Source of the DNA: Candidatus Multivoradales bacterium
GTDB taxonomy: Bacteria; Acidobacteriota; Thermoanaerobaculia; Multivoradales; J023
Length of the DNA stretch: 64,000 nucleotides
Assembly (NCBI GenBank): GCA_965248925.1
Contig: CBDFLE010000005.1
Span: 1,280,001-1,344,000, forward strand
Reading direction: 5' to 3'
Under the pieces are notes generated by a model. It was not told the origin of the DNA, made no database searches, and was given only the letters and a program-made list of their open reading frames with translations. The translations under genes were made by a program, and so were the position numbers. Positions 16,625 through 34,334 of this stretch are shown here, one piece after another (position 1 is the first letter of the stretch; every line of letters begins with the position of its first letter).

Positions 16625-17653
16625 TCAGTCGCGGGCAGTCCAAGGAGCCGGTAGGAACCCACGCAGACGGGTGCCAACCCCCTCCTCCTCGGCCAAACGC
16701 ACGGCCAAACCGCCGACCGCCAGATCCAACACCCCCAAACCAAAGGGGCTAAAGACCACTGCGCGCTCGCTGTCGGAACGGGCTGGTTGATTGCCGAGCA
16801 GGATGTCAGCCAGCGGACAGCGGACAAAGTCGCGATGGCCGACCTCAGTCTCGGTGAGATGTATCGAAGTGCCAGCTCTCGCCACATGATCGAGATCGTC
16901 GACTACGTTGTCAGCTGCCAGAATCGCCCGCGGAGCCAAATCGCGCAAAGAAATATGTAGCACCACTCCACCAGCAGCCATCGGAGAAAGGTCGTCTAGG
17001 TAGGGAGCACCAGCTGTCGTAGCGAAAGACACCAGAGAGCGCCCAGCGAGCAGCTGCTCCATGCTGGGCACCTGCTCGATCTCGACCTCACCCAGACTGC
17101 GGCGGCAATGGTCGACAAATTGCTTCGCCCGTTCGTCGGACAGATCGAAAACGAGAACCCTCTCCAGACCGCTGAGGGCAGACCGCAGAAACCGCAGAAT
17201 TTCGAAATTTATCAGGCCACATCCCACCAAGGCAACACTCTCCACGCGACGGCCATCAAGCAACACCCGCGCCGCCAAAGCCGCGCTCGCGGCGGTCCGC
17301 TTGGAGCTGACAATCGAAGCTTCCAATAGTGCCTCGGGATGCCCCGTGCGAGCCGAGTTCAGCGCCATCAACGCTGAGGCCCTGTCAAGTCCTGAGGTGA
17401 TGTTGCCTGGGAACGAAGATATCCACTTCATCCCCGCCAGATCGTAGTCTCCGCCCAAGAAGGCCGGCAGGCATATGATCCTGTTCGCAGGTTCCTCGGG
17501 GAAACGTAGGAAGCTCGAATGAGGCAGAGAGCTAGCGCCTTGACGATGCAACCTGTAGGCGGCGGCGACTTCATCGAGAATCTGCGTCTCTCGGTCTCTC
17601 AACAGAGAGAAAATCTCGTCACCCCTTAGGATCAACAAATGGTCATCAGTCAA
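16625..17653 (-). CDS. sbnB: SbnB-family ornithine cyclodeaminase-like protein (2,3-diaminopropionate biosynthesis)
   Basis: PHSSFLRFP, RIICLPA, GMKWISSFPGN, RTAASAALA, LHISLRD and FSPFGLGVLD motifs. TTG start. Confidence 0.88.
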   Translation of the reverse strand: MTDDHLLILRGDEIFSLLRDRETQILDEVAAAYRLHRQGASSLPHSSFLRFPEEPANRIICLPAFLGGDYDLAGMKWISSFPGNITSGLDRASALMALNSARTGHPEALLEASIVSSKRTAASAALAARVLLDGRRVESVALVGCGLINFEILRFLRSALSGLERVLVFDLSDERAKQFVDHCRRSLGEVEIEQVPSMEQLLAGRSLVSFATTAGAPYLDDLSPMAAGGVVLHISLRDLAPRAILAADNVVDDLDHVARAGTSIHLTETEVGHRDFVRCPLADILLGNQPARSDSERAVVFSPFGLGVLDLAVGGLAVRLAEEEGVGTRLRGFLPAPWTARD

Positions 17654-18625
17654 TAGCTCAACCTCAGAGCATAAAGCCGCCTGAACGACAAAACGCCCAA
17701 TTTACAGTGAATTCTCTATCAAACACCCACAATCTCGGCATCGTCTTCACCGATCCAAATTGCTGGCAGATGTCTGACCGCTAGCTCTCTACGTCTGCGA
17801 CCGGGCCTCGACCGCCGAAGTCAAAGTCCGACCCCCGCATTATGTCGTCAGGCACTTGCCCGCAAATTCTAACACACCACCACCAACCGAAGTGAACTGC
17901 TCTGTACCGTCGAGCGGAGCTGAAGACAGATAACGCATCTAAACCTGTACAAGGTAGATTGTTAAACTTAGTCACTTCACAAGAGCCTCTTATCGACAGC
18001 TAGACAAAAGATAGAAACTGTTCTATCGCTACTCGTTGACAGAGTAAGATGCCTCATCTATTCTTCCCCCACACCAAAGCCTTGGGGTGGTCATTCAACT
18101 CCAGGCGAGTAGGGGACCAAAACTTGATCAGACTAAATCCAGACTAGAGTCAGCTATTCGAGAACTCGCCAAACTGAGTTCTTGGTGTCAGCCTACGTGC
18201 TAGTGGTCGGCAATAGCGACCTACAATCCATCCTCCAGGAACCGCTTAGGGGGCCTGGAAAGCGTGGAGCGCGCCTACCAGCCGGAAGCCTGCAAAACCT
18301 TTTTGGTAAGTAGTCGAACAGGATACCGCTGTCTACTTGCAGCTCTCTTGGGAGCTTGGGCCAGATCATCGGCCCGAGTCAGCTCACTTTCTTTCACAGA
18401 CGGTAACCAGAGCGAATGAAATCCGCAACCTGGGCTTCACCGGGAGAATTGCGCGCGCCAGAAGGAGTGTCTAAATGCAACGCCTGCCGCCTTGACAGTC
18501 CACCATCGATAGACTTTTCATCACGAGATAGCAGCAACTTTTTGCATACGTTTAACTACACTTCAAACGAGTTCCTAATCGAACCCGAATTCAACCGTCC
18601 CCATCCTTATTGAGGAAATCATTCC

Positions 18626-18799
18626 ATGTCGATCAACACCTTCCGCCAGAACCTACTCAACAATGAGTCATCCAGCCCCATGAACCACGCCTTGGTCAAG
18701 CTGCAGAATGTCTCGAATCCCGCCGACTTACTGAGCAAGTCGAGCGTCGACTTTTTCCAGTGGCAGCCGTGGAATCCCGACGCCGAGACCAATATCTGA
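18626..18799 (+). CDS. 57-aa putative pheromone/RiPP precursor peptide 1 (ComX-like)
   Basis: Hand-translated: MSINTFRQNLLNNESSSPMNHALVKLQNVSNPADLLSKSSVDFFQWQPWNPDAETNI. GAGGA RBS, downstream hairpin, and homologous to 23319..23498. Confidence 0.8.
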   Translation: MSINTFRQNLLNNESSSPMNHALVKLQNVSNPADLLSKSSVDFFQWQPWNPDAETNI

Positions 18800-18818
18800 C
18801 CGGGTCCCACCCCACCAA

Positions 18819-18843
18819 GCTGCCGCCGTCCAGTGGCGGCAGC
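18819..18843 (+). terminator. Hairpin after peptide 1 (terminator or mRNA stabiliser)
   Basis: 9-bp stem gctgccgcc/ggcggcagc with no U-tract. Confidence 0.5.
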
Positions 18844-19025
18844 GCCCGACCTTCCGATTGAGATCGCTGCTGATCACACCCAGCGCTCGCTGCTGCCGCG
18901 GCCCAGCCAGGACTTGCCAGGATCCGTTATTGCTCCCTATAATGGCCGCCTCCAGACCATGGCCACCCCCGGTAGGAAACCAGAAAGCTAGCAGGGGAAG
19001 GAGCCCAAAAAGTATCGGAGCGGCG

Positions 19026-20000
19026 ATGATTCTTGATAGCCAGAGCGTGCTCGAGAAGATCCAAGACCGGTTATTGAACTGCTCTCAGATCCACGGCTGG
19101 CCAGAGATGGTCGAGCTGATCAATCGCCCGGTGACGACTGCCGCGACACCGTGTTGGGAGTATCCACTGATCGCCGCCGAAGCCGTTGGCGGAAGAATGG
19201 ACGAAGCGATACCCGCAGCAACCACGATTTTCTCTCTTTTACAGAGCATCCACCTTGTTGACGACATTATAGACCACGACCCGCGCGGCCTTTTTCGGCA
19301 ACTAGGAGAGGGCAACGTGGCCAACATCGCGCTCGCATTCCAAGCGATCGCGGCGACAGTCTTGGTCGATCTCCCACTACCAGCCAAAGTTATTGCCGAA
19401 GCCCAAGCCTGCGTCGCTGAGGTCGCCCTCAATACAGCTGCTGGGCAACGCCTCGACGCCCTCGAGATCACCGACGAGGCAACTTACTGGCGGGCAGCCC
19501 TGGCTAAGACACCGCCCCTATTTGGCGGCGCGTTGAAGCTCGGGGCACTACTCGCCGGAGCCGAATCGAAAATCTGCTCCCAACTTGAAGACCTGGGGCA
19601 GCCGATTGGCAAGATCGTCCAACTCAGTGATGACCTACGGGACGCCATGGAAAGCCCGGCAAACGCAGACTGGCAAGGCCGCGGCAATAACTTGGCGATC
19701 TTATACGCCACGACAGCAGACTACCCAGAACGGCAGCTCTTCGAAGATCTCCTGCCGCGGGTCGGGGCCGAGCCAGAAGCGCTGACTGAAGCGCAAGGAA
19801 TTCTGGTGCGCAGCGGCGCGGTGAGTTATTGCGCCTTCCATATGATCGAGACCTACCGTGTTGGCAACAACCTGGTCGCCGCGACAGGTCTGGCCAACAG
19901 CAAGTCCATTACCGACCTGCTGGACCACTTGACTCTACCCCTGAAGAGTCTATTGGAGGCTGTAGGGGTCGATACCGCGGCGGAGCTCTTCGAGCCATGA
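19026..20000 (+). CDS. Class I isoprenoid-synthase-fold protein, ComQ-like peptide Trp prenyltransferase candidate
   Basis: First Asp-rich motif HLVDDIIDHD, GQRLD, KT and second motif QLSDDLRD. Lacks the N-terminal GKRxR and the RRG after the first motif. GGAG RBS before ATG 19026, 324 aa. Confidence 0.75.
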   Translation: MILDSQSVLEKIQDRLLNCSQIHGWPEMVELINRPVTTAATPCWEYPLIAAEAVGGRMDEAIPAATTIFSLLQSIHLVDDIIDHDPRGLFRQLGEGNVANIALAFQAIAATVLVDLPLPAKVIAEAQACVAEVALNTAAGQRLDALEITDEATYWRAALAKTPPLFGGALKLGALLAGAESKICSQLEDLGQPIGKIVQLSDDLRDAMESPANADWQGRGNNLAILYATTADYPERQLFEDLLPRVGAEPEALTEAQGILVRSGAVSYCAFHMIETYRVGNNLVAATGLANSKSITDLLDHLTLPLKSLLEAVGVDTAAELFEP

Positions 20001-22912
20001 GGCTGCCGACCCAAAGCCTGACCCAGAATCGCCTTGGCAATGCAGTCTGCGTACTACTCTCTTTCCTGATTCTCACTACTTGCCTATTCTATTCCTACAA
20101 CTTCCTCAAGCGACCGAATTTCGGTTTCTTACTCTACCCCTACACTTGGGCCGTGGACCGAATTACCGAGCCTTGCCATGCGCCGACCGGTTGTCTGGAA
20201 CTGGGCGACCAGGTCCTGCAGATCGGCGACACCCGCTTCGGGACTTTTCGCAACAGTCGTTCCAGTCGGCTCTACAACTCTTTCAAAGTGGGTCAATCGG
20301 TAGACTTCGTTATTCTCCGCAATGATCAACAGATGACTGTTGCAGTCCAAGTGCTGCCCGGCACCCGGGCTGGAGCGCTCGACAACTTCTTAGCTTTCTT
20401 CTTTCCACTGATCTTCTGGTTAACCGGCAGCATCGCCATAGTCTTTCTGCGGCCGCGGGACGAGCGCTGGCTACTCCTAGTCGCCTTCTGGTACGACGTC
20501 GCTCTTTGGACGGCTTCTGGATTCGTCTCGGCGACTCAGATGTCCTACTCGTCAGTCGTTTTCAATTTCTCGATATGGCTCTTTATCCCGTTGATTATTC
20601 ACCTTCACCTGATCCTGCCAAATAGTATTCTGCCACGAATCGACCGCTGGATTCTACCTCCCCTCTACCTCGCCACCTTGACCTTGCTGATTCTCGACCA
20701 ACTTTACTTACTCGAGCGCTCAGTGAACCTGCAGTTGTGGCTGATCTCGATCGGTACCTCGCTGGTATTGTTGGCATCGCGTTACTTCCGCCAAGTCCAA
20801 ATGGCCAGTCGAGTGGCGAGCCGCCTTATGGCTTTTGGTGTCGCCATCGGCTTGGGCCCATTTGTGATCACCCTTTACATCACTCTCTTTCTCAACTTGC
20901 TACCAAAATACAACCGGCTTCTCGATGGCGTCGCGATGCTCGTGGTACCGATCTGGCCAATGTCCTACCTCTACGCAATCTACAAACTGGGACGAAGCAA
21001 GTTCGAGTTCCGTGCCAATCGCTTACTTACTTCCTATGGATTCTTCTCAGCCTACATTGCTCTCTTCGTTGCCACCTACTTCGTCCTCTACTACTTCGTC
21101 GACGACAATTGGCCGGGAATGACCGAGGACCCGGTAATCTTCAGCCTGCTGACTTCCGCTTTATTTGTTGCCCTCGGGCCAACCCTTCGCAATCGCTTCC
21201 AGCAACTTGTAGATCGCAATATCTTTGGTATCAGGTATCGGCCCGAAGCGCTAGTTAGTGGATTCGCAGAGCGCATCCCGACTTCCTTCAATCGCGAAAT
21301 CCTGAAACACCTAATCGTCACCGAGATCTTGCCTACCTTGCTGATCCGACAATCATGTCTATACCTCTTCGACGAGGAAGATCCAACTCCCCTCTACATC
21401 CAGGATCTTCCCTCACACCTGATCGCCCGGCCTCTGGACCGGGAACAGTTAGCTCAGCTGCTGACGTCCTCGGGCCGACATCTTAAGCGAGAGACTCAGG
21501 CCGGGCCGATGTCCTGGATCCGACTGGTGATACCGCTTTCAATCGCCGACCGCTACATCGGAGTCTGGCTCTTCGGCCGGCGTGACCCGGACGACTTTTA
21601 CCCAGAGAGTGACATCAGCCTGTTGCGCAACCTTGCCAACCAAATCGCCCCGGTTACAGAACATGTGCGACTGGTGGAGGCGGCACAACAAGAGATCGAG
21701 GAGAACCGGCGGCTACAAAATCAGCTGGTACAATCTCAGAAAATGGAGGCTGTCGGTCGGCTTTCTGCCGGCATCGCCCACGACTTCAACAACCTGTTGT
21801 CGGTCATTATCGGCTATTCCGATTTGCTGCTGGCTCGGTTTCGTGGGCAGCGTCCAATCCAAGAATACGTGTCCGACATTCGAGATGCCGGCAAGCGTGC
21901 TTCAGTGCTAACCAAGCAGCTGTTGACCTTCAGTCGCCAACAGGCCGTCGAGGCCCAGGTAGTCGACCTCAACCGAGTGATCTCCGAGGTCGAGAGTCTC
22001 CTCAGCCGGGCCATCAGCGGAGATATCGAGCTAAAGGTCGAGTTGGGCAGTTCGGAATACTTGGTGATGGTCGATCCGGGTCAAATTGAGCAGGTGCTGC
22101 TCAACCTAGCAGTGAATGCCAGTGATGCCATGCCCAATGGCGGAGTCCTTGCCGTTAGCACCGATCGAGGTGATCAGACTGCCTGGGGCAATGATCTCAA
22201 TTTGCCCACCAATGACTTTGTTCACCTATCTGTTGCCGACAGTGGTTGCGGTATTCCGAACTCTGCTTTGGAGCATATCTTCGAGCCCTTCTTCACCACT
22301 AAGGACATTGGAAAGGGCACCGGACTCGGGTTGTCAATGGTCTATGGCATTATCAGTCAAAGTGATGGCTATATTTTCGTCGACAGTCGGGTTGCCAGAC
22401 GAACTGGAGGCCAGGTCGACGATCAATCCTACTCCGGCACTAGATTTGACATTTATCTGCCGCTGACTACCGAGAAAATCTCGGCCCCTCTCAACGTTCC
22501 AGAAGAGCCGACTGATCAACCCTCTGGAATTGGCACCATTCTAGTGGTCGAAGATAACGATATAGTTCGTAAAGTCACTTGCGAAATCCTACGCGACTGC
22601 GGATATCAGGTTATCGAGGCCAGTGACGGGAAATTGGCTCTAAGAGTATTCGAGCAGCACACTGGCCACATCGATCTACTATTGACTGATGTGGTGATGC
22701 CGGCCATTAGAGGCCCAGAGCTCGCTCGACGACTACTGCTGATGGCTCCTTCTCTACGGGTGATCCTGATGTCTGGCTACAACGACGAGTCTATGATTGA
22801 AGGCGGCGTTAGCACCTCTTGGCCGATGATTCGCAAGCCCTTCTCCCCGGCATCCCTTTGTCGGGAGATTCACGCCCAACTCGATTCCGGGTCCTCGCCA
22901 GCCAGCAAGTAG
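19997..22912 (+). CDS. Hybrid sensor kinase: TM-PDZ-multi-TM-GAF-HisKA-HATPase-REC (ComP-like input)
   Basis: ATGA overlap with the upstream stop. PDZ-like [11 protein letters not shown], about 9-10 hydrophobic segments, GAF ([22 protein letters not shown]), AHDFNNLL H-box, [13 protein letters not shown] and [11 protein letters not shown]. Confidence 0.9.
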
Positions 22913-23318
22913 CTCGCAAAGAAAATTGTATTTTCTATATATCTATTGCTAAACCACTGACCCCAGTTTGACCTCGACTGAGCAACCGCGGGGGGCCATT
23001 TAGCGCCCCCTCTAGATAATTCACCCGCCTGCACAAAACCGGGGAATACACTCGGCTCTCATACCTATTGTTAGATGCGTATGGCAGGGTGCTGTTTGGC
23101 CTGACCGCCTGCGAGGCGCTCATCCATACTGTGCGGAGTTGCCCCCTAACGTAAGTTCGCAAGCGAGAGGGAAATTTCTTCTGAAAGGAGAATAGAGATG
23201 CCCTGTGCACCCCACTGACTAGCTCGAGAAGTCAAACTCGCCGAGTCGTCGTACCAGACTCCGACATCCTCCTGCTGCCCGTTCTGGCAGATTCACAACT
23301 AGTTTCAGGAGACCAGCC

Positions 23319-23498
23319 ATGACGATCAAAGCATTTCCTTCGATGCTTCGCCTAGAAGGCCATCCGCAACCGCTGTGGAGGGCATTGAGAAGTCTCACTC
23401 GGAGCAAACTCGAACCGGGCGAGGTGTCCATGCGGTTCCTGAGTTGGGAGCCTTGGGTGCCTGGGCTTGGGGATGAGACCGGAGCAAGTCCGGCTTGA
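23319..23498 (+). CDS. 59-aa putative pheromone/RiPP precursor peptide 2 (paralog of peptide 1)
   Basis: Hand-translated: MTIKAFPSMLRLEGHPQPLWRALRSLTRSKLEPGEVSMRFLSWEPWVPGLGDETGASPA. AGGAG RBS; aligns with peptide 1. Confidence 0.75.
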   Translation: MTIKAFPSMLRLEGHPQPLWRALRSLTRSKLEPGEVSMRFLSWEPWVPGLGDETGASPA

Positions 23499-23582
23499 GG
23501 ACCTCTGGGCGATTGAAACCAGTCTCGTGTCGTTTTCGCCTGGCCTCGTCTTGTCACCACCACCGGCTGCAGGGCGAGGCTT

Positions 23583-25481
23583 CTAGTCCGCCGTTGCTGG
23601 CGGGTCTCGCAGACGATCTGCCAGCCCCGAGCTTCGCAAGGCTGGACTTTCTATCGCGAACCGGAGAATCTCTCGACTGGCAAAGATCTGTACTTTGCTA
23701 CGCGCCCGGGTCAGCGCGGTATAAAGTAACTGCCGGGAAAGCACTGGAGAGATTTCCACCGGCAGTACAATCGCCACCTCTTGGTGTTCTGATCCTTGGC
23801 TCTTGTGCACGCTCGAGGCCAGCGCCGATTCATGTGCTGGCAGCCACGAGGGAGCCACTTCGCGGACTCCATCGGCGGCTGCAAAGTAGGCTTGAGGACC
23901 GCGCTGCGGATGACTGGCAATGACCCCAAAATCCCCGTTGTAGAGTTCTTGGCGGTAGTCGTTGCGGGTGAGGATCAGAGGCCGCCCTTCATAATGCCCA
24001 CCGGCCAGGCGCTGTAAACCCTGCGCAGAGTCCAAGTGCCGCTCAATTGCTGAGTCCACTGCCAGCGCGCCGAGGGCGCCATGGCGATGGGCGCAGAGAA
24101 TGCGGAACTGCTCTAGCAACTCGAGCTTGGCGAGCGGGTCTGAAAGCTCTAGCAGCTGGCGCCAGTTTCTCAGCGCCCGAGTGATTAACTGGACAGGCAC
24201 CTTGCCGCCGGCGGGAGGCTCGATTCTCTGCAACACTTCTTGCCCCGGCTGCTCAAGCAACTGTAATGCTCGCTCGACCTTGCCAAGTCTGACGGCGGTT
24301 GCTAGTTCCTCGATCAGGCCGCCAGCGCTGTAGCGGTAGCTGTGTTGCAGAGTAACTATTGAGTCGCCGATAGCGGCGCTGTCATGGTCCCGATTCTCGG
24401 TCACCGAGTCTGGCTCGGCGGGCTTCAGGCTTTGCTGCGCGACTTCTTCGATATCCTGCCTCAGGCGGGTCGAGAAGCTGGCAGGTGCGGTACAGATATC
24501 GGCCAGAACCGCGCCCGCCTCTACCGCCGCAAGCTGGTCTGGGTCGCCTAATAGGATGCAGCGGGCGGTCTTGGGCAGGGCGCCTAGGAGCCGGCTCATC
24601 AGCGCCAGATCAACCATCGAGGCCTCGTCGAGCACTACCAGATCCGCTAGCAACGGCCGCCCTGGGCCATGTCTAAAGTGGCTTGTACTACCGCCTACAG
24701 ATCCCAGGGCACGATGCACAGTCGAGGCATTCTCGGCTATCCCAGCAATCACCTCCGGCACCACGTCGAGCTGTTGTTTGGCCTGGCGGATCGACTGTCC
24801 AAGCCGTGCCGCCGCCTTGCCGGTTGGCGCCAGCAAGAGAGTGCGCGGCGGCGGCTCACCGGCCGCCAATGCCTGCTCGCTGAGGAGAGTCAGAATCTTC
24901 ACCACCGTGGTGGTCTTGCCGGTGCCAGGGCCACCGGTAATAACGCACAGTCGCCGGAGGACGGCGATGGCCGACGCGACTCGCTGCCAATCGATCGCCA
25001 CGGTCGAGTTCTTAATAAAGAGGCGTTCCAGGCCGTCGCAGAGCAAATCTCGGTCGACTGCCGGCGGCGGCCCCCCGGCTAGCAGATGAAGGCTCTCTGC
25101 AAGGTCTTCTTGATGCCGCCAGTAGCGGTGAAGATAGAGCCTGCCACGGCGATCGAGGATCAAGGGCCGACTCGGCGAGCGCTCTGCTGACGCCGCGGCA
25201 TCGACCAACGGACTGGCGGCCAGCAGCTCCCGCCAACGCCTTGCCGGTGGCCAACTGCGATCTTCGGTGGAATCCTCAGGGCTGCTCGCCGGTGGCGTCA
25301 GCACCCAGCGTTCAAGATCCAAACACGAGTGCCCGCGCCTGAGTTGGCGAGCGGTCAGGGCCACCGCCAACAGCACTTCGGCACGCTCCTCGTTGGCCAG
25401 GCGACCCAGGGTGTGGGCCAGCTGCTCGTCCAAGGCGCCCAACTCGCCGGCTGCCCGCAGCTCTTCGAGAGTCGGTGTCAC
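23583..25481 (-). CDS. recD: Exodeoxyribonuclease V alpha subunit
   Basis: TGGPGTGKTT, APTGKAAARL, LDEASMVD, GDPDQL and VHKSQGSE motifs. GTG start overlaps the recB stop. Confidence 0.93.
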   Translation of the reverse strand: MTPTLEELRAAGELGALDEQLAHTLGRLANEERAEVLLAVALTARQLRRGHSCLDLERWVLTPPASSPEDSTEDRSWPPARRWRELLAASPLVDAAASAERSPSRPLILDRRGRLYLHRYWRHQEDLAESLHLLAGGPPPAVDRDLLCDGLERLFIKNSTVAIDWQRVASAIAVLRRLCVITGGPGTGKTTTVVKILTLLSEQALAAGEPPPRTLLLAPTGKAAARLGQSIRQAKQQLDVVPEVIAGIAENASTVHRALGSVGGSTSHFRHGPGRPLLADLVVLDEASMVDLALMSRLLGALPKTARCILLGDPDQLAAVEAGAVLADICTAPASFSTRLRQDIEEVAQQSLKPAEPDSVTENRDHDSAAIGDSIVTLQHSYRYSAGGLIEELATAVRLGKVERALQLLEQPGQEVLQRIEPPAGGKVPVQLITRALRNWRQLLELSDPLAKLELLEQFRILCAHRHGALGALAVDSAIERHLDSAQGLQRLAGGHYEGRPLILTRNDYRQELYNGDFGVIASHPQRGPQAYFAAADGVREVAPSWLPAHESALASSVHKSQGSEHQEVAIVLPVEISPVLSRQLLYTALTRARSKVQIFASREILRFAIESPALRSSGLADRLRDPPATAD

Positions 25482-28400
25482 TCGCCCTCTCCAACTGCCA
25501 GATCGGGCACCCCGAGGAGCTGGCTGAGGTCTTCGATCAGTTGCGCTGAGGGTAGATCTTGGAAGATGCCGCAAGCCGGCGGGTGATGCTGCCCCACCCC
25601 TCGCAGGAAAAGGTAGATGGCACCACCGAAACTCTGCCGATAACTGTAGCCCGGCTGGCGTAGACGCAGATAGCGATCCACCGCCAGGACGTAGAGGTGG
25701 TATTGCAGAAAGTAGTGGTGCTCAGCCATGGCGGTCGTCAATCTGGCCGGCAGATAGTCCTGGGGTCGCGACCCCAGGTGATTGGATTTGTAGTCAAGCA
25801 CGAACCAGCGGCCATCCTGCTCGAAAACCAAGTCGACAAATCCACGTAAGTAACCACAGAGAGGCGCGAAATCAAGCCGGGCCAGCCGCTGGTAATAGTT
25901 CGGTGCCATCGCCGGCGCCTGGTGTCGCGCGAAGAGTTCGGCTAACTGGTCAGCGACCAACTCAGGCCTATTTCTGGCCGCTGCGGCTGGCAGAGTGAAA
26001 GGCATCTCGACCAGTCGCCGCTCGGCCTGGCACAGTTGGACCGTGCGACCAGCAACCGCGATCGGTAGTTGCAATGCCGCCTCTATCGCAGAGCTTAGAA
26101 TCCCGCCCCAACTGGAATCGAGGCCGAACCGCGCCAGGGCCTCGGCGGTGGTACGCCGCACTTGCTGCTGGTCGGCCGAAGGTTCGAGAAGCTCGAAGAT
26201 CTGATGCACCATATTTCCCGGCTGGCGGCCTGCGGGCAGAGGATCGAGCAGGATCCTCCGCTCCTCGACCGCTGGCGCCAGCAGCGGCGGCCGAGCGCCG
26301 GGCAAGGCGTCGGCCAGATTGTCAGCGCCGTCGAGATCGCGCCCTTCATCGAGGGGCGAACTCTCTGCCCCTCGAACCATCGCCGAAAAACTCGACCAGC
26401 GCCACGGCAAAGATGCCCGGCGCCGAATCTGACGCGGTCGCAGCTCGGCCTCTGTAGGCAGCCGATGCTCAGCGCGATAGCGACTCGCCGGGCGCTCGTC
26501 AATGGGTTGGATTTGCAACCCCACTGCGGCCAGATCAGCAAGCTGCTGCAACTCGAGCCAACGCCCTTCCTCGGACAGGGTCCGCAGACGGTCGCCCGTC
26601 GTGCTCCGCAAGGCCGCCGGATCCTGCTCCGCGGCGGCGGCTGGCAAGGGATGCAGCAGATAACCCAGAGCGCTCTTGTGAGCATCTTGAAAGGCACCCC
26701 AAACCAGCGTGCAACCGTGGCGGGCGCGGGTCAGAGCAACATAAACCAGACGTAATTCCTCGGCAAAATCCTCTTCCGCTGCTTGCTGCCGATGGTGATC
26801 TATCCGCGAGGAGCCCAAGTCCAATTTGCCGCGGTAGCCATCGCTGGGATCGTGAAACCGCACCCAAGGCCGCGACGGCTCGAAATGATCCCAGAGGAAA
26901 GGACAGTAGACCAGCGGGTATTCGAGCCCTTTGCTCTTGTGCACTGTCACCAGCTGCACCGCATGGGCGTCGCTCTCCAGGCGAATCTGCGCCACTTCGT
27001 GGGCTAATGCCCCTCCCCCACTCCCAGCGCGCAGGCGGGCCAACCAGCGCAGCAAGACCTCGGCACTTCCGCCATAGCGCAGCGCCAGGCTGTCGACCAG
27101 CTCGCCGAGGTGACTCCAATTGGTCAAGCGTCGCTCTCCGTCGGCCAGAGCGAGCAAGCGGGCCATGCGCCGCGGATCGTCCAGCATGCGGCGCAGAGCG
27201 GCGAGCATGCCCCGCGCTCTCCACGCTTCCGACCAGCTGGCGAAACGCTGCTGCCAAGCCGCCCAGACATCCTGCTGGCCGGTCAATGCGTGCAGTTCAC
27301 TGGCCGTGCAGCCGATCAAATCAGTCGCCAGAGCGGCCCGCAGAACCCGTGGGTCGCGGGGATTGGCCAGTGCTCGCAAGATCAACTCCAGCTCGGCGGC
27401 TTCGGCAGTCTCGAAGACGCTGCTATCGCCGTGCAGAACACTCGGTACGCCGAGTCCACGCAGAGCCGCTTGCATTGCTGCTGCCTGGGCATTGGTACGG
27501 CAGAGAACAGCCATGTCGCCAGGCACTACCGGCAGTTCGCCGAGGTGGGTGGCACCCTCGAGGCGGCGGCGGATATCCGCCGCCACGACTCGCGGCAGGC
27601 GCTGTCGAGCAGCGGTCTTGGAAATCGGCTTTCCAGGCTTGCCTCCCAGCGAGCCGCTACCCGCCCACAGCACCCGCAAAGGCTGCCGCCAGTCACCGGT
27701 GGCGTCCGCCGCCAAGGTGCTGTGCAGCAGATCTTCGGCCGCCGGTCGCGGGGCGACCTGATCGAAAGCAATACCAGCGAACAAAAAGGGACGCGAGCAG
27801 CGGCCGAAAAGGGTGCCCAGAGCTGCCAGCAGACCGGGATCGGAACGCCAGTTGACATCCAAGGTGTGCACCGCTCGCGCATCCCGCCGAGCGCTGAGAT
27901 AGGCAAAGACGTCAGCGCCGCGAAAGGCGTAAATGGCCTGTTTGGGGTCGCCGACCAGGAGCAAGGTCGGCGGCTGGGCGGCGGTCGCCGCGCCGGTCCC
28001 CAGGTAGATGCGGCGGAAAATCCTATATTGCAACGAGTCAGTATCTTGAAATTCGTCGATCAATGCCGCCGGATAGCGCCCTCTGAGCTGGGCCGCCAAA
28101 CGGCCACCGGCGGCACGATCGAGCGCTTGATCGAGGCCGAGGAGGAGGTCGTCGAAACCCTGGCTGCCGCGGGCTGCTTGCCGCCCTGGCAATTCCTGCC
28201 GAGCCCAGTCGACAAGTTCTAATTGCAAGGTCAGCGCTTGCTCTTCGAGTTGGCTAGTGAGTTCGAGATCCGCATCGATAAGTTCGGCACAGGCCTCAAA
28301 GAGGGGGTGCCGTGGCGTTGGTTTCCCCTTCTTGGTTCCCTTCTCTAAGGCCGCTGGGCTGAGCTTGGCAAGGTCCTGGTGGTAGCGCCCGGGCTGGGCC

Positions 28401-29200
28401 GGGGTGGCCAGCCGATCGAGTGCCGGCAGCAGGGTCTTGGTGATCGTCGCTCGGCGATAGAGGTTACGGTTGAGGGCTGGCGAGTCGAGAAGCAGGGCTT
28501 TGACTTCTCCGCCGGAGGCCCGCCATAGCTCATTCAGACGTTGCCGTGCGCTGTGCCAGCGACCGGCATCCAATGCCGCGGCCGGCCTTTCCTCGCCAGC
28601 CGGCAAGAGCTGCAACCGGGGAGCTGACAGTGCCCGGCTAGCCAACCGCGCCAGGAGTTGCGGGTCAATTCCCCGAGCGGCCAAGAAACGCACCAACAGA
28701 GGATCGGCGCCATGCACTTGCCGCACCCAAAAGTCTTCCGCCAACTCGGTGATGATCGGCCGCGAATCGGTCGGCAGCGGATCGACAAACGACACCCCGC
28801 TCTCGAATGCAGAATCCTGCAACACCCGATGGCAGAAACCATGGATGGTGTAAATCGCCGCTTCGTCGAACTCGCGCACCGCCTGCACCAGGCGAACGCG
28901 ATCCTCTGCCGCCGACTTCTGGCGCCGCTCCAGGTAGCGATCGAAAACCTCTTCACCCGTCAGCTGCCCGCTGTCCAGAGCAGCGATCACTTGGCGCAAA
29001 CGTTGGCGCACCTGATCGCGCAATTCAGCCGTCGCCGCCTGGGTGAAGGTCACCACCAGGACCTGGCCAACCTTGAGCCGACGCTCTAGCAACAAGCGCA
29101 GAAAGAGGGCCGTCAGACTGTAGGTCTTGCCAGTGCCGGCGCTGGCTTGCAACAGCTGAACACCTTCGAGTTCCACCGCCAGCGGGTCGAAGGTCTTCAC
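25478..29200 (-). CDS. recB: Exodeoxyribonuclease V beta subunit
   Basis: ASAGTGKT, DEFQDTD, GDPKQAIYAFRGAD, TVHKSKGLEY and C-terminal nuclease GFVDLVF..DYKSN. Confidence 0.95.
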   Translation of the reverse strand: MKTFDPLAVELEGVQLLQASAGTGKTYSLTALFLRLLLERRLKVGQVLVVTFTQAATAELRDQVRQRLRQVIAALDSGQLTGEEVFDRYLERRQKSAAEDRVRLVQAVREFDEAAIYTIHGFCHRVLQDSAFESGVSFVDPLPTDSRPIITELAEDFWVRQVHGADPLLVRFLAARGIDPQLLARLASRALSAPRLQLLPAGEERPAAALDAGRWHSARQRLNELWRASGGEVKALLLDSPALNRNLYRRATITKTLLPALDRLATPAQPGRYHQDLAKLSPAALEKGTKKGKPTPRHPLFEACAELIDADLELTSQLEEQALTLQLELVDWARQELPGRQAARGSQGFDDLLLGLDQALDRAAGGRLAAQLRGRYPAALIDEFQDTDSLQYRIFRRIYLGTGAATAAQPPTLLLVGDPKQAIYAFRGADVFAYLSARRDARAVHTLDVNWRSDPGLLAALGTLFGRCSRPFLFAGIAFDQVAPRPAAEDLLHSTLAADATGDWRQPLRVLWAGSGSLGGKPGKPISKTAARQRLPRVVAADIRRRLEGATHLGELPVVPGDMAVLCRTNAQAAAMQAALRGLGVPSVLHGDSSVFETAEAAELELILRALANPRDPRVLRAALATDLIGCTASELHALTGQQDVWAAWQQRFASWSEAWRARGMLAALRRMLDDPRRMARLLALADGERRLTNWSHLGELVDSLALRYGGSAEVLLRWLARLRAGSGGGALAHEVAQIRLESDAHAVQLVTVHKSKGLEYPLVYCPFLWDHFEPSRPWVRFHDPSDGYRGKLDLGSSRIDHHRQQAAEEDFAEELRLVYVALTRARHGCTLVWGAFQDAHKSALGYLLHPLPAAAAEQDPAALRSTTGDRLRTLSEEGRWLELQQLADLAAVGLQIQPIDERPASRYRAEHRLPTEAELRPRQIRRRASLPWRWSSFSAMVRGAESSPLDEGRDLDGADNLADALPGARPPLLAPAVEERRILLDPLPAGRQPGNMVHQIFELLEPSADQQQVRRTTAEALARFGLDSSWGGILSSAIEAALQLPIAVAGRTVQLCQAERRLVEMPFTLPAAAARNRPELVADQLAELFARHQAPAMAPNYYQRLARLDFAPLCGYLRGFVDLVFEQDGRWFVLDYKSNHLGSRPQDYLPARLTTAMAEHHYFLQYHLYVLAVDRYLRLRQPGYSYRQSFGGAIYLFLRGVGQHHPPACGIFQDLPSAQLIEDLSQLLGVPDLAVGEGE

Positions 29201-32200
29201 GGTGCAACCTCGCGGTGTTGCATCAAGGGGCCAAAGACAGTCGACGAAGCCGCCGTGAAGGAGGTTTGGCGAAGGTCTTCTTCGGCGGCGCCATTCAGCT
29301 GCAGTGGGTAGCTATCACGCAGCGGATCGAGATCACCGAAGAGGCGTCGTATTTCGGGCTGATCGAGTTCAGAAGAAGAACGAAAACGCCCCCGCAGCTT
29401 GCTCTTGGCGACCTGCAGAGCGGCAGCCCGCCGCGGCTCGTCGGGCGCCTCACCAAGCCTGGCGACGTAGGCGGCGGAGGCTTCGGCAAAAAGTAGCAAC
29501 GGCCAGCGTTGGCCTAGCACCCACAGATCTAGCAGTTCAACCAAGAGCCGGGCAGGGTCCTCAGGCGGAGCGAAGCGAAGCACCTCGGCGGCGCCACTTC
29601 CGCCGCGACCGATGAGCACGCTGGGCTGCGCCCCCAAGGCCCAATTCAGCGCCAAATGACGAATCCACAGACCGAGTTGGGCGGCGGCATGAAGGCGGCC
29701 GAAGCGCACTTCGACCAAGGCCGCCGGCCAGCGATCATCAAACCGCCCCTGCAGCAAGAACCGACGGTTGGCACCTTGCAGCTCGCCGCGAATGGCCGCT
29801 GTAGTAAAGCGCTCGCCGCCGCACCAGGGGGCAGCGGCCGCGGCAAGACCGTCGATCTCTTGGCGCAGACTGTCGAAGATTGTCTGCCCAGCCACTCCGG
29901 GGGGTAACTCACCGGCCGCGCGCAGCAAGTCGTAGGCCCCTTCCAACGAGTCGCCAGCCAGTCGCCAATCGAGTAGACGCTGGCCCACTCGCCAACCTTC
30001 CAAACCGACCAGATCGAGGGGCTCACGGTCTGCGGGCAGATCCCCGTCCGCACTTAGCTGAAGGCCCAGGCGCTGCTCCAAGAAAGCCCGCCAGGGACGC
30101 CGGTAGAAACGCACCAGGTCGTCGAGCTCGAGCTCGACCGGGCTCTCGGCCGCAGCTTCCAGAGCGCTGTCGAGAAATCGGGGCTGGCTTTCATTCTGCT
30201 CACCCAGCGCCCGCGCACCCGCCGCCGCCGCGGCACGAAAACTCCACAGCTCTTCGCTATCGGTGGACGAGAAATAGCGCTGATCAAAAGGCTGTAGCGG
30301 ATGTTCGATCAGCAGCTGGCGGCGCAGAACGGCGGCAGTGGCATCCGTGGTGCGATCCTCTGCTGCGGCGGCGGGCACAAACGACTCGGTCAAACAATCG
30401 AGCAACTCGCCAACCAGCACGCTGGGCGGCAGCTCACTGCCATCGCGGGGAGAGTGGCCAGTGTAGCTGATCAACAGCCGATCGCGGGCCGAGAGCACCG
30501 CTTCGAGCAGCAGATAGCGATCCTCTTCGCGGCGTGAACGATCGCCAGGCCGTGGCTCGGTGACCAGCAGATCAAAGCCGGGTCGGCGATCGAGTCGCGG
30601 ATAGGCGCCGTCGTTCATGCCGGTCAGACACACCACCCGGAAAGGCAAGGTGCGCATCGGCACCAGTTCACAGAAAGTCACTCCCCCTTCGAGAAAACCG
30701 CTGGCCGGCGCCCGCTCCGCGAGCAGGGGTGCCAGCGCCTCGACCCAGGACGCCAATTCCAGCCGCTGATCAAAACCAGCCTGCGCGGCAGTCGCGGTGA
30801 GTTCGATCAGAGCGGCCCGCAGCAGCTCATGCTCAGCGCCAACCTGGTCATCCAGCGCCAGTAAGCGATCCAAGGCACCGAGGAGCAGCTCCGACCAGCC
30901 TTCGGGAGACCGCGGAGTCCGCGCCTGGCGGTGAATTCTGAGCAGGCTCTCCAGCCATTCGCTGAGCCGGCCGAGGGACTCACCGGCAGAACCTTCGATG
31001 TCGTCGAAAGGCAGCACACCGGCAAAGCACTGCTTCCCCTCGCCGACCATGGCAAAACCCAGCAGCAGGCGATCGATCGTGAAACGCCAGGTGTTGGCCC
31101 CGTCCGCCGGCTGGCCGAGGGCCTGGCGATGGTCGCTGTCGGCCCCCCACCGAACCCCCGCACGGCTGAACCAATGGCGCAGATCTTCGAGCTCATCAGC
31201 CGCCAAGCCACAGCGGGCGCGGACCGGCTCGCGGGCGATGAAATCGAGCACCTCACCAGCCCCCAACCGCCCGCCGAGGAGCTGCAACAGCGCCAGGAAC
31301 GCCTCGATCACCGGATGGCCGGAAGCTAGACCGCGATCCGCCACCCGATAAGCGATACGCGGCTCCTCGGCGGCACCGAAGACCGCTTCGACAAAGGGGG
31401 CGTATGCGCCGATATCCGGCGTCATCACCAGCACATCGCGGGGCTCCAGAGTGGCGTCGTCTTGCAACAGGCCGGCCAGCTGGTCGTGCAGCACCTCGAG
31501 TTCGCGCAGCGGTCCGTAGCAGCTGTGCAGGCGAATCGAGTCGTCACCGAAAGCGATCTGCAGGGGCACGCACTCCCGCCCATCGCCTCGACCCGCTTGA
31601 CCGACTCGGCGGTGGCGCAGATTCAAGATGTCGGACTGCAAGGCGTGCAGGGCCGTATCGGTTCCTGGATCGCGATATAGATCGAGGTCGGCCTCGCGCA
31701 TTCCCTCGATCCCTTCGAGCACCCATTGGAAATCACGCCCCAAACGGCCCCAGGAGGCCAACAGCGGGTTGCCCTCGTCCAGATGCAACTGGTCGGCAGT
31801 GGCCGGCCGGTGGCCAAACAGACTCAGTTGGCGACCGATGTCGCGCCGAGAACGAATATCGGCAAAAAACTCCCGCGACGGGCTCAGCACGAAGAGGTGC
31901 AGGTCCAGGTGTCTAGCTAATGCAGCGAGAATCTCGACATAGAGGGGCGGAAGCGCGCTCAGGCCAAAGAGTGAAACCCGCTCCGGCAAGCCCGGCAGCG
32001 GGCCCCGCCAATGCTCGAGCGCGGTATGAAAACGCTCGGCCCTCGCCGCCAAGTGCCAATCTCCCAGACGCCGCCCCAAACGCCGCCATAGGACCGCCTG
32101 CCAATCCTCCCCTTCGCCTCTGTCCCAAGCTCGAACCCGCTGTTGCCGATAGACCGCGTAGCGATCGAACACCCCAGCGATCCGCCGTGCCAGATCGAGT

Positions 32201-32562
32201 TGACGACGAACTCCAGGATCGGCAGCGAGATACTGCCGCAGAGGCTGCATCCGCGGGTCGTCGTCCAACTCCTTCAGCAATCCGCAAATTGACCAGGTCA
32301 GCGCTTCAGGGCTGGGCAGAGCCTGGGTCGAGTCGCCGAGCACGGCGGCGAAGGCGCGCTCGATGAAGCGGCGCGGAAATGGAAAATCAGGATTGGCCCA
32401 GATTCCCAGCCGGCGGGAGAGTTCCATCGCCAGCCAGCGCTCCATGCCGCGCCCCTGAACCACCACGCATTCGCTGGCAAGGGGATCCGACAATGGCCGA
32501 GTTACCAGCTGGGCGAGAACAGCGAGCAGTTCCTCGGTACGGTTGCTGCGATAAATATACAT
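29197..32562 (-). CDS. recC: Exodeoxyribonuclease V gamma subunit
   Basis: YRSNRTEEL, GMERWL, NPLLASWG, LQSDIL, VMTPDI, PMRTLPFRVVC and HPLQPF motifs. Confidence 0.93.
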   Translation of the reverse strand: MYIYRSNRTEELLAVLAQLVTRPLSDPLASECVVVQGRGMERWLAMELSRRLGIWANPDFPFPRRFIERAFAAVLGDSTQALPSPEALTWSICGLLKELDDDPRMQPLRQYLAADPGVRRQLDLARRIAGVFDRYAVYRQQRVRAWDRGEGEDWQAVLWRRLGRRLGDWHLAARAERFHTALEHWRGPLPGLPERVSLFGLSALPPLYVEILAALARHLDLHLFVLSPSREFFADIRSRRDIGRQLSLFGHRPATADQLHLDEGNPLLASWGRLGRDFQWVLEGIEGMREADLDLYRDPGTDTALHALQSDILNLRHRRVGQAGRGDGRECVPLQIAFGDDSIRLHSCYGPLRELEVLHDQLAGLLQDDATLEPRDVLVMTPDIGAYAPFVEAVFGAAEEPRIAYRVADRGLASGHPVIEAFLALLQLLGGRLGAGEVLDFIAREPVRARCGLAADELEDLRHWFSRAGVRWGADSDHRQALGQPADGANTWRFTIDRLLLGFAMVGEGKQCFAGVLPFDDIEGSAGESLGRLSEWLESLLRIHRQARTPRSPEGWSELLLGALDRLLALDDQVGAEHELLRAALIELTATAAQAGFDQRLELASWVEALAPLLAERAPASGFLEGGVTFCELVPMRTLPFRVVCLTGMNDGAYPRLDRRPGFDLLVTEPRPGDRSRREEDRYLLLEAVLSARDRLLISYTGHSPRDGSELPPSVLVGELLDCLTESFVPAAAAEDRTTDATAAVLRRQLLIEHPLQPFDQRYFSSTDSEELWSFRAAAAAGARALGEQNESQPRFLDSALEAAAESPVELELDDLVRFYRRPWRAFLEQRLGLQLSADGDLPADREPLDLVGLEGWRVGQRLLDWRLAGDSLEGAYDLLRAAGELPPGVAGQTIFDSLRQEIDGLAAAAAPWCGGERFTTAAIRGELQGANRRFLLQGRFDDRWPAALVEVRFGRLHAAAQLGLWIRHLALNWALGAQPSVLIGRGGSGAAEVLRFAPPEDPARLLVELLDLWVLGQRWPLLLFAEASAAYVARLGEAPDEPRRAAALQVAKSKLRGRFRSSSELDQPEIRRLFGDLDPLRDSYPLQLNGAAEEDLRQTSFTAASSTVFGPLMQHREVAP

Positions 32563-32651
32563 GGCGAGCCGGCGAATGATACCCCGCGCCTGGGCAGAGC
32601 TCACCGTTGCCATAAGATAGTCCTCCGATCCATTCCCACGAGGAGTTGAAC

Positions 32652-34334
32652 ATGGCCGATGACCCGATCCAGGACGTAGCCTCCACCGCCACTTCGCCAG
32701 CATCCAAGCGCGGTCGCGGGATGGCGCTGCACACCAAGATCTTGATCGGCATGGCGATCGGCGTCCTGGGTGGCCTGTTGGTCGGCCCGAACTCTCCCTT
32801 GTTGGAAAAATCAGCCGTCGAGTTGACCGGCGCCGTGGTTCTCGATGCGCCGCAAGGAATCGCCGTAGCGATGGCCCAAGAGCTGCGCCGCGGCCGGCTG
32901 GTGGACCAACAACCCGGCTGGTTGAAGATCGAAGGCCGGCTCTCAGCGGCGGCCTTGCTGCGCCTGCAGGCCGCTGGAGTGGCCGCGGCCGGCGGCGGCG
33001 AGCCCGGCATGACCGTCGGCGGCTGGGTGGCCGACGAAAGCGGCAAGATCCGTCGTTTCGCGCCCTTGGGCCAACGCTTGGTGGACCTCACCGAGTGGAT
33101 CGGCCGCCTCTTCCTGGCGCTGATCCGCATGGTGGTGGTGCCGCTGGTGTTCTTCTCTTTGGTGGTGGGGGTGGCCTCTTTGGGTGATTTTCGCAAGCTC
33201 GGCCGGCTCGGCGGTCGCACCCTGGCCTACTTCACCGGCACCACCGTCGTAGCGTTGGTGATCGGCGTCAGCCTGGCCAACCTGGTGGCTCCGGGCAAGC
33301 TGCTCTCGGCCGCCGACAGCGCCCTGCTGCAAAGCTCCTACAGCGGCCCCGCCGGCAGCAAGATGATGAGCGCCGCCGCGGCGCCGTCGCTGGTCGATCA
33401 CCTGGTTTCGATCGTGCCGACCAATCCGGTCGCGGCGCTGGCTGGTGGCGACATGCTGCAAGTGATCTTCTTCGCCCTGATGCTGGGCATCGCCCTGACT
33501 TTTCTCGACACCGAGCGCGCTAGACCGGTGGTGGAGCTATTCGACCGCCTCAACGATGCCATGGTGATGCTGGTTCACATCGCCATGGCGCTAGCACCCT
33601 ACGGCGTCGCCGCCCTGCTCTTCAAGGTGGTCGGATCAACTGGCTTCTCGGTGCTGGTCGCCCTGTCGGCCTACACTGGCGTGGTCTTGCTCGGCTTGTT
33701 GCTGCACTTGCTACTGACCTTCGGCACGGTGATCCGGATGGGAGTCAAACTGCCGTTCTTGAGTTTCCTCGGCGCCATCAAGGAAGCGGTTTTGGTGGGC
33801 TTCTCCACCTCCAGCTCCTCCGCCACCTTGCCGATAACCAAAGAGTGTTGTGAGGACAACTTGGGGATCAGTCCGCAGGTGTCGAGCTTCGTGCTGCCGA
33901 TTGGCGCCACCGTCAACATGGATGGCACCGCCCTTTACCAAGGTGTCGCGGCGATTTTCATTGCCCAGATTTACGGCATGGACCTCGGCCTGGCCGAACA
34001 AGCCACCATCGTCGCCTCGGCGACCTTGGCCTCGGTTGGCGCCGCCGGGGTGCCGGGGGCGGGCATGATCACCCTGGCTTTGGTGCTGACCGCCATCGGC
34101 GTGCCCACCGAGGGGCTGGCCCTGGTGCTCGGCGTCGACCGACTGCTCGACATGTTCCGTACCGCCCTCAATATCATCGGCGATGCCACCGCCACCGCCC
34201 TGATGGCGCGACTGGAAGGTGAAGATCTACGCATCCTGAGCGATGCCGAAGACAGCGCCGACCCTCGGCACGGTTTCGCTGGCCGACTCAGCGGCGGCCC
34301 GCGGGCGGTGAGCCTGCCTAGTGATAGCAACTAA
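32652..34334 (+). CDS. Dicarboxylate/amino acid:cation symporter (DAACS, GltP-like)
   Basis: FSTSSSSATLP, PIGATVNMDGTALY, ASVGAAGVPG and DRLLDMFRT motifs. Confidence 0.93.
   Translation: MADDPIQDVASTATSPASKRGRGMALHTKILIGMAIGVLGGLLVGPNSPLLEKSAVELTGAVVLDAPQGIAVAMAQELRRGRLVDQQPGWLKIEGRLSAAALLRLQAAGVAAAGGGEPGMTVGGWVADESGKIRRFAPLGQRLVDLTEWIGRLFLALIRMVVVPLVFFSLVVGVASLGDFRKLGRLGGRTLAYFTGTTVVALVIGVSLANLVAPGKLLSAADSALLQSSYSGPAGSKMMSAAAAPSLVDHLVSIVPTNPVAALAGGDMLQVIFFALMLGIALTFLDTERARPVVELFDRLNDAMVMLVHIAMALAPYGVAALLFKVVGSTGFSVLVALSAYTGVVLLGLLLHLLLTFGTVIRMGVKLPFLSFLGAIKEAVLVGFSTSSSSATLPITKECCEDNLGISPQVSSFVLPIGATVNMDGTALYQGVAAIFIAQIYGMDLGLAEQATIVASATLASVGAAGVPGAGMITLALVLTAIGVPTEGLALVLGVDRLLDMFRTALNIIGDATATALMARLEGEDLRILSDAEDSADPRHGFAGRLSGGPRAVSLPSDSN

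Follow-up and report, generated by a model that had tools for sequence, protein, structure and literature searches.

Peptide pheromones carrying an isoprenoid on tryptophan are exemplified by the ComQXPA system of Bacillus subtilis and other Firmicutes, in which ComQ prenylates a tryptophan of ComX, ComP is a polytopic kinase and ComA is the regulator. To our knowledge, Firmicutes are the only group in which experiments have established such prenylated-tryptophan pheromones (ComX, PalX). In Paenibacillus alvei, according to the available text of its description, a kinase, a precursor and a trans-IDS-like tryptophan prenyltransferase are encoded together in the PalP-PalX-PalQ cluster (PMC10853753). 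A single Chloroflexi case of tryptophan prenylation appears in a 2026 preprint, the available part of which describes a ComQ-family enzyme of Sphaerobacter thermophilus (StheQ) and an adjacent tryptophan peptide of ~69 residues (StheX) that is prenylated on a tryptophan near its C-terminus (bioRxiv 10.64898/2026.08.29.745113).

The logic of ComQ/ComX/ComP, PalP/PalX/PalQ and StheQ/StheX is matched by a cassette on the forward strand of a 64,000-nucleotide stretch of acidobacterial DNA (hereafter the window). A first precursor gene (P0002, 18626..18799) is followed by a ComQ-like enzyme gene (19026..20000), a hybrid sensor histidine kinase gene (19997..22912) and a second short ORF (P0001, 23319..23498). 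We read 23319-23498 as a genuine gene for a second ComX-like, ribosomally made tryptophan-peptide precursor, and give this reading, together with the mechanism proposed below, a probability of about 60%.

Several features distinguish the cassette from ComQXPA. It belongs to Acidobacteriota, has paired precursors in the order X-Q-P-X, and carries an invariant W-x-x-W where ComX has a single tryptophan; its kinase is a hybrid with its own receiver domain and a PDZ-like loop, and the cassette encodes no ComA-type DNA-binding response regulator, whereas its relatives carry a receiver-EAL protein. Like StheQ/StheX, it places a ComQ-like enzyme outside Firmicutes beside a tryptophan peptide. StheX, compared here by description only, has one acceptor tryptophan, second from the C-terminus, in place of the W-x-x-W, and, unlike the locus described here, neither paired precursors nor kinase linkage is described for it in the available part of the preprint (bioRxiv 10.64898/2026.08.29.745113). 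PalX, as far as its available description goes, combines an NHLP-type leader with a tryptophan at the very C-terminus (PMC10853753), whereas the peptides here have a different, short family of leaders and residues beyond W-x-x-W.

The ComQ-like enzyme and its modelled complex with P0001

The enzyme gene product matches PF00348 (Polyprenyl synthetase, E 4.3e-15), and in the PDB a profile of its family matched nothing but polyprenyl synthases and one prenyltransferase (best E 3.6e-17). All of its NCBIfam matches were polyprenyl synthases scoring far below their cut-offs, and no ComQ-specific model was returned. As in the trans-IDS-like peptide tryptophan prenyltransferases (ComQ, PalQ, the P domain of ChrPC and StheQ), an isoprenyl-diphosphate-synthase fold is combined with a first Asp-rich DDxxD motif. 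Across 19 sequences this motif (79-83; D79, D80 and D83), GQxxD (140-144) and K161-T-P-P-L are invariant, and the same is true of the second motif, Q199-x-x-DDxxD (202-206; Q199, D202, D203 and D206). A conserved Gln just upstream of the second Asp-rich motif, a feature taken from the available text of a 2026 review (PMC13290415), is present as Q199; canonical synthases have the same Gln, so this residue alone is not discriminating. The second motif also separates the enzyme from the ComQ family proper (IPR033965). According to the available part of the preprint (bioRxiv 10.64898/2026.08.29.745113), this motif is degenerate in Bacillus ComQ and StheQ, a pseudo-motif of the form NDxxx, whereas the full DDxxD at 202-206 is invariant in the family described here, which we count against our main reading. 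Given the phylum, paired precursors, W-x-x-W, full DDxxD, hybrid kinase and lack of a ComA-type regulator, the enzyme is not filed in the ComQ family proper; the cassette as a whole is filed as trans-IDS-like, tryptophan-prenylated peptide signalling of the ComQ/ComX/ComP type, with new features.

Orthologues of the enzyme, at 37-48% identity, are present in 23 of 41 related genomes (this genome counted), and in 17 of 23 within the same family. With the initiating Met at 19026, they align from residues 3-12 onward, and they are adjoined by small ORFs whose products share the leader and carry W-x-x-W C-terminally.

Modelling of the enzyme with P0001 gave a complex score of 0.79 (median of three runs), against 0.00 for the best control. 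Of 80 solved complexes, 58 reach this mark, as do 2 of 110 mismatched pairs, counts that hold only roughly here because our own alignments were used for the enzyme and P0001; the score is moreover the model's own confidence, which is counted against the main reading. At least 60% of contacts are common to the runs, and the pLDDT of the partner is no lower than 63. In the model, P0001 residues 1-4, 6-7, 10, 18-19 and 21-27 contact enzyme residues 226-231 and 257-275, which include S263-GAVSYC-A270, a segment invariant in a 7-row alignment and largely conserved in a 19-row one, and P0001 residues 38-40 and 42-44, W43 among them, contact enzyme residues 198-210 at Q-x-x-DDxxD. W46 lies outside the confident contacts and bears neither way. 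In the available text of PMC13290415, the second Asp-rich motif and the Gln just upstream are what recognise tryptophan in trans-IDS-like tryptophan prenyltransferases, and the modelled position of the P0001 tryptophan region fits this account. The available description of PalQ likewise reports an AlphaFold model of enzyme and precursor with the tryptophan in the active site (PMC10853753). The first-pass annotation had proposed that one enzyme handles both precursors, and the modelled contacts, which fall on conserved leader residues, make this plausible. That P0001 is a substrate of the adjacent enzyme is probable.

In the mechanism we propose, the leader (M-T-I-x-x-F...A-L-R-x-L) would dock on a family-specific helix of the ComQ-like enzyme, which, by analogy with ComQ, PalQ and StheQ, would use a prenyl diphosphate to prenylate a tryptophan of W-E-P-W, most likely the first. 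Once its leader is cut off, the lipidated peptide would leave the cell and be detected by the polytopic hybrid kinase encoded next to the enzyme, a step that only gene linkage suggests. With one enzyme the cell would in this way make two peptides, one with the core FFQWQPWNPD and the other with RFLSWEPWVPG.

The probable second precursor gene and the W-x-x-W family

The P0001 ORF encodes 59 residues and opens at an ATG that is the earliest start codon past the upstream stop, with a Shine-Dalgarno sequence (AGGAG, 23307..23311) 7 nt ahead of it. Its translation divides into a leader (residues 1-32), a linker (33-37), the core MRFLSWEPWVPG (38-49) and a tail (50-59) with a final Ala. The codons for W43-E-P-W46 lie at 23445..23456; this is the invariant W-x-x-W in alignments of 18 and 68 sequences and, from those columns and the complex model, the predicted modification site. 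P0002 encodes 57 residues with the core FFQWQPWNPD, and its Shine-Dalgarno sequence (GAGGA, 18612-18616) stands 9 nt before the ATG. Good ribosome-binding sites on both ORFs had been claimed from the first inspection and are indeed present. The identities listed between the two peptides (M1, I3, F6, L10, P18, A22, L23 and L26) are all correct, and the 3-residue offset and the cores SVDFFQWQPWNP and SMRFLSWEPWVP agree with the translations. The description of P0001 as hidden is doubtful, since both peptides are already called as proteins in a public protein collection.

P0001 shares the strand of the kinase gene, and 406 nt separate it from the kinase stop codon. The spacer (22913..23318) is AT-rich over its first ~50 nt; no plus-strand terminator is predicted within it, and a promoter and terminator scan did no better than on shuffled sequence. 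The length of the spacer and its lack of a recognisable promoter are counted against the main reading. Rfam gave no match in the spacer and region-wide just one sub-threshold lncRNA match, located elsewhere. A search for a shared regulatory motif upstream of precursor genes returned counts no higher than in shuffles, the Shine-Dalgarno sequence apart. G+C by codon position is flat in P0001 (0.60/0.57/0.58), and this is counted against the main reading; third-position G+C (GC3) is 0.83 in P0002 and 0.63-0.67 in the enzyme and kinase genes. An antisense ORF of 114 codons (23219-23563; GC3 0.54) overlaps the region and matches nothing in Pfam. No model in Pfam (E up to 10) or NCBIfam (E up to 1) matches P0001 or P0002.

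How good is the evidence that the two peptides are related? Compared pairwise by BLASTP they share 15 of 53 residues (E = 2e-5), and the shuffle test upheld the alignment on which the first-pass annotation relied, its local score being reached by 1 of 20,000 shuffles and its semi-global score by 3 of 20,000. In a BLAST search of the 152,487 six-frame segments from the 8.0-Mb genome that were 30 residues or longer, each found the other only as its seventh (E 3.8) or fourth (E 8.2) non-self match. Because the mutual match is insignificant genome-wide, their likeness alone convinces only through the shared cassette. DNA repeats between the two gene regions amounted to short, chance-like matches.

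Profiles built solely from the peptides of other species were decisive for family membership: they contain no sequence from this genome, and yet of its 152,487 six-frame segments P0002 ranks first and P0001 second. The E values for P0002 and P0001 were 1.7e-6 and 0.13 with 6 seeds, 2.7e-8 and 0.06 with 16 seeds, and 1.4e-7 and 0.034 with 120 seeds, these last having been gathered with a profile that itself included both window peptides; the third-ranked match to the 120-seed profile stood at 0.35. P0001 matches at full length, from Met1 through W-x-P-W (model positions 1-50 of 51), and the other weak matches in the genome are internal pieces of larger frames. Its score is low, at 15-17 bits (genome-wide E 0.03-0.13), which counts against the main reading, and lies within the range of the post-kinase copies in loci L040, L031, L022 and L036 (15.1 to 27.1 bits), which were outside the 6-seed training set. 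It is highly probable that P0001 is a real gene and a member of this family.

The recommended search for homologues recovered a family of peptides of 42-75 residues with the leader M-[ST]-I-x-x-F...A-L-x-x-L and an invariant W-x-x-W. When an 18-peptide profile was searched against 1.84 billion cluster representatives, at least 211 matched at E <= 1e-3; of the 150 listed, nearly all were 42-75 residues long. Setting P0002 aside, 146 of the 149 listed have W-x-x-W, with Pro third in 48 of the 146. Gly often precedes the motif (70 of 162), and most members continue for 6-17 residues beyond it. In the 18-peptide alignment F6 and both tryptophans are invariant and M1 and I3 nearly so; the alignment of 68 sequences has the same invariants and adds A22 and L23. 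P0001 carries every one of these residues (F6, W43, W46, M1, I3, A22 and L23). Among the precursor genes of relatives that were examined, 15 of 16 start with ATG, most with a GGAG-type site 6-10 nt upstream. No description of the W-x-x-W family was found in openly searchable full-text literature; supplementary files may list further ComQ-like clusters.

The motif first proposed for the peptides, S-x-x-F-x-x-W-[QE]-P-W-x-P, is private to this lineage, the motif of the family being W-x-x-W. Its Ser is lost in both known orthologues, being Pro in P0057 and Ala in P0013, and the shorter F-x-x-W-[QE]-P-W-x-P is defensible as a local motif. Those orthologues also bear on selection. P0057, the orthologue of P0001, has 59 residues and comes from one JGI/IMG contig of 3,305 nt; P0013, the orthologue of P0002, has 57 and comes from one Logan contig, and the two may stem from different organisms. 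P0001 and P0057 are identical at 41 of 59 positions, comprising 25 of 32 in the leader, 1 of 5 in the linker, all 12 of the core MRFLSWEPWVPG and 3 of 10 in the tail, and P0002 and P0013 at 32 of 57, with 8 of 12 in the core. A neutral, substitution-only simulation run to 41/59 identity left the ORF intact in 3,507 of 20,000 trials and the core unchanged in 116.

Each paralogue thus keeps its own core across organisms, and the claim that both are real genes under selection very probably holds, as paralogues within one precursor family. The picture of a conserved leader and a variable core has to be reversed: the core is the more similar part, both between the paralogues (6/12, against 8/26 for the leader) and between orthologues (12/12 for P0001 and P0057). 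Pherotypes are normally a matter of strain-to-strain variation. The proposal of two pherotypes is unsupported, since the term implies such variation and each core is here kept across organisms; at least two precursor genes are, besides, found in 52 of the best 80 of 117 related loci. An agonist/antagonist pair formed by P0001 and P0002 is possible. P0001 has a single known orthologue, which is counted against the main reading. Metagenome scans with P0001 and with P0057 yielded no confirmed orthologous locus, a word-index protein search with P0001 returned only P0001 itself, and the Protein Atlas gave no usable match.

Some variation was seen at the C-terminal end of the family. Among peptides with at least 6 residues past W-x-x-W, the last residue is Ala in 65 of 102 from the loci and 48 of 95 listed from the library; the tail of P0001 (23466-23495) ends in -PA and P0002 ends in -NI. 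The C-terminal Ala may serve as a mark that is recognised during processing or by the PDZ-like loop of the kinase. Three loci of Myxococcota/Deltaproteobacteria, one of them from Plesiocystis pacifica SIR-1, have multi-core precursors, with 3-4 W-x-x-W units behind a single leader (L105 5212-5370, L107 5162-5320, and L118 5218-5373 in P. pacifica, coordinates that mark where each precursor starts), and no kinase match was found beside their enzyme genes. Two W-x-x-W units are present in some second copies of Holophagales-type loci (L069, L073 and L074). A distant family of the same phylum, from small genomes of ~3 Mb, has single-tryptophan precursors just upstream of a ComQ-like gene (L044 1489-1647, L045 746-937 and L111 794-898); these share the leader (MTIEQFHSML...), end in YWF or YWY and lack W-x-x-W.

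The sensor kinase and gene order in related loci

The kinase gene (19997..22912) encodes 971 residues and its ATG overlaps the stop codon of the enzyme gene (ATGA). Pfam matches, translation and hydropathy indicate ~8-10 hydrophobic segments and a first loop resembling a PDZ domain, besides GAF-like, HisKA, HATPase and receiver domains. A profile of the first extracytoplasmic loop (20057-20566, ~residues 35-125), built from 21 orthologues, had 99 matches in the PDB at E up to 1; all 60 of those listed are PDZ domains, from RseP-type site-2 protease, DegP/DegQ and eukaryotic PDZ proteins (best E 0.0011). Pfam PDZ_2 by itself falls below threshold on this loop (E 0.0041). A PDZ-like sensor loop would be unusual in a pheromone-type kinase. 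No exporter or protease gene lies within the cassette.

A scan of genome contigs with the single enzyme sequence found nothing. Species-representative genomes scanned with a 7-sequence enzyme alignment yielded 117 confirmed relatives, of which the best 80 loci were kept, many of them ending at contig ends. The records are titled mostly Acidobacteriota (Thermoanaerobaculia and Holophagales MAGs), and others come from Candidatus Entotheonella sp. TSY1, Anaerolineales MAGs, Myxococcota including Plesiocystis pacifica SIR-1, and Aureisphaera galaxeae. With x for precursor, Q for enzyme and HK for kinase, the commonest order among the best 80 of 117 is x-Q-x-HK (39/80), followed by x-Q-HK (14/80), x-Q (6/80) and x-Q-x-Q-HK (4/80); x-Q-x, x-x-Q-HK and Q-HK account for 3/80 each, Q for 2/80, and x-Q-HK-x, Q-HK-x and four other orders for 1/80 each. 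A precursor adjoins the enzyme gene in 74 of these best 80 loci and a kinase match stands beside it in 67. As at least two precursor genes are present in 52 of the best 80, a second copy is common and not an oddity. Its usual site is between enzyme and kinase (39 of the best 80); a precursor after the kinase is rare, being seen in 2 of the best 80, and the position of P0001 is counted against the main reading. The first set of loci came from a genome search, most of them in the same family as the window; of the 12 whose sequence extends far enough past the kinase, 5 have a post-kinase precursor (the window, L022, L031, L036 and L040).

The idea that post-kinase copies form an ancient class of their own found no support: best-hit analysis gave no downstream clade, and the best match of the downstream copy in L036, for example, is its own upstream partner. 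Class profiles made from the 39 x-Q-x-HK loci separated 77 of 78 of their own members, a self-classification, and assigned neither P0001 nor P0002 clearly (differences of 1.6 and 3.2 bits). Further irregular loci were noted. The copy downstream of the kinase in L022 (6865-7029) has CGT at the expected ATG and may have lost its start. In L023, a rearranged locus, the kinase is preceded by a 56-residue fragment of the enzyme gene (1467-1634) and followed by a full copy, and isolated precursor genes stand beside other kinase genes in L049 and L050.

A gene for a receiver-EAL regulator of the c-di-GMP phosphodiesterase type is found in 58 of the best 80 of 117 loci, in 53 of them upstream on the same strand, and typically lies ~1.9 kb upstream of the enzyme gene (e.g., L068 3681-4904). 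Neither the window nor loci of the same family have this gene beside the cassette.

Signal, lipopeptide or relic

A chance open frame whose resemblance to the family is coincidental is a very improbable explanation of P0001. Three independent profiles put it second of 152,487 segments, and it lies in the same cassette as the first-ranked segment, 4.5 kb away; its likeness to P0002 was equalled by 1 of 20,000 shuffles, and it has an orthologue in P0057. Against this weigh the insignificant genome-wide BLAST between the paralogues (E 3.8-8.2) and the antisense ORF of 114 codons that spans the region (23219-23563), although the latter has no Pfam match and a GC3 of 0.54. P0001 could also be a decaying duplicate, now silent or non-functional and kept only because little time has elapsed. 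Such a relic would account for a profile score among the lowest in the family, the flat GC3, and the atypical position behind the kinase and a 406-nt spacer with no promoter match, and the L022 downstream copy, with CGT at its expected start codon, points the same way. The P0001 ORF, however, is intact, with a Shine-Dalgarno sequence, a start codon and all invariant residues, and P0057 is of the same length and differs at 18 positions, none of them in the 12-residue core, an outcome unlikely under neutrality (116/20,000). Nor is the identity of P0001 and P0057 (41/59) below that of P0002 and P0013 (32/57), and in the models P0001 docks confidently on the enzyme. We regard decay as distinctly unlikely.

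If P0001 is modified, what is the product for? That it is an extracellular signal read by the adjacent kinase is a tentative proposal, to which we give slightly less than even odds. The enzyme and polytopic kinase genes are translationally coupled (ATGA), a kinase match stands beside the enzyme gene in 67 and a receiver-EAL gene is present in 58 of the best 80 of 117 loci; through this coupling, the conserved enzyme-kinase pair and the receiver-EAL genes, the cassette resembles a signalling circuit such as ComQXPA or PalPXQ. These observations speak against a product that is an antimicrobial or membrane-active lipopeptide, or a cell-bound peptide, beside a kinase that regulates the cassette or senses something else. 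This alternative is unlikely, and it draws on several facts: gene adjacency is the sole link between the peptides and the kinase; the cassette has no exporter or protease gene; the multi-core precursors of the three Myxococcota-type loci (L105, L107 and L118) are more typical of natural-product RiPPs; and prenylated tryptophan peptides can be membrane-active, an example in the available text of PMC13290415 being antimicrobial peptides prenylated in vitro.

On the preferred reading, in which P0001 is a second ComX-like precursor, the locus is one of a large unnamed family that numbers at least 211 clusters of precursors and, in species-representative genomes, 117 relatives of the enzyme, and that occurs mainly in uncultured soil Acidobacteriota, commonly with two distinct precursors per enzyme and kinase (at least two in 52 of the best 80 loci). 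It would offer an entry point to peptide signalling in Acidobacteriota, where our literature search found none described, and may connect peptide sensing with c-di-GMP; W-x-x-W is a predicted substrate class for tryptophan-prenylating enzymes, of interest for peptide lipidation. A more speculative and, taken as a whole, unlikely extension is a two-signal lipopeptide system of Acidobacteriota and some other Gram-negative phyla, in which one ComQ-like enzyme would prenylate two W-x-x-W peptides with conserved cores, the PDZ-like kinase domain would grip the C-terminal Ala tail, the two peptides would act combinatorially or antagonistically, and the output in most lineages would be c-di-GMP breakdown via receiver-EAL proteins.

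The cassette together with the ORF-poor ~970 nt before it (17654-18625) has a G+C content of 0.47-0.61 (17500-23300), against 0.62-0.64 for the genome, which is compatible with acquisition by transfer. Directly after the cassette, on the minus strand and convergent with it, lie recD, a recB-like gene and recC (23583-32703). A gene for a RecB-like helicase-nuclease is also found upstream of the cassette in 16 of the best 80 of 117 loci (e.g., L068 161-3565).
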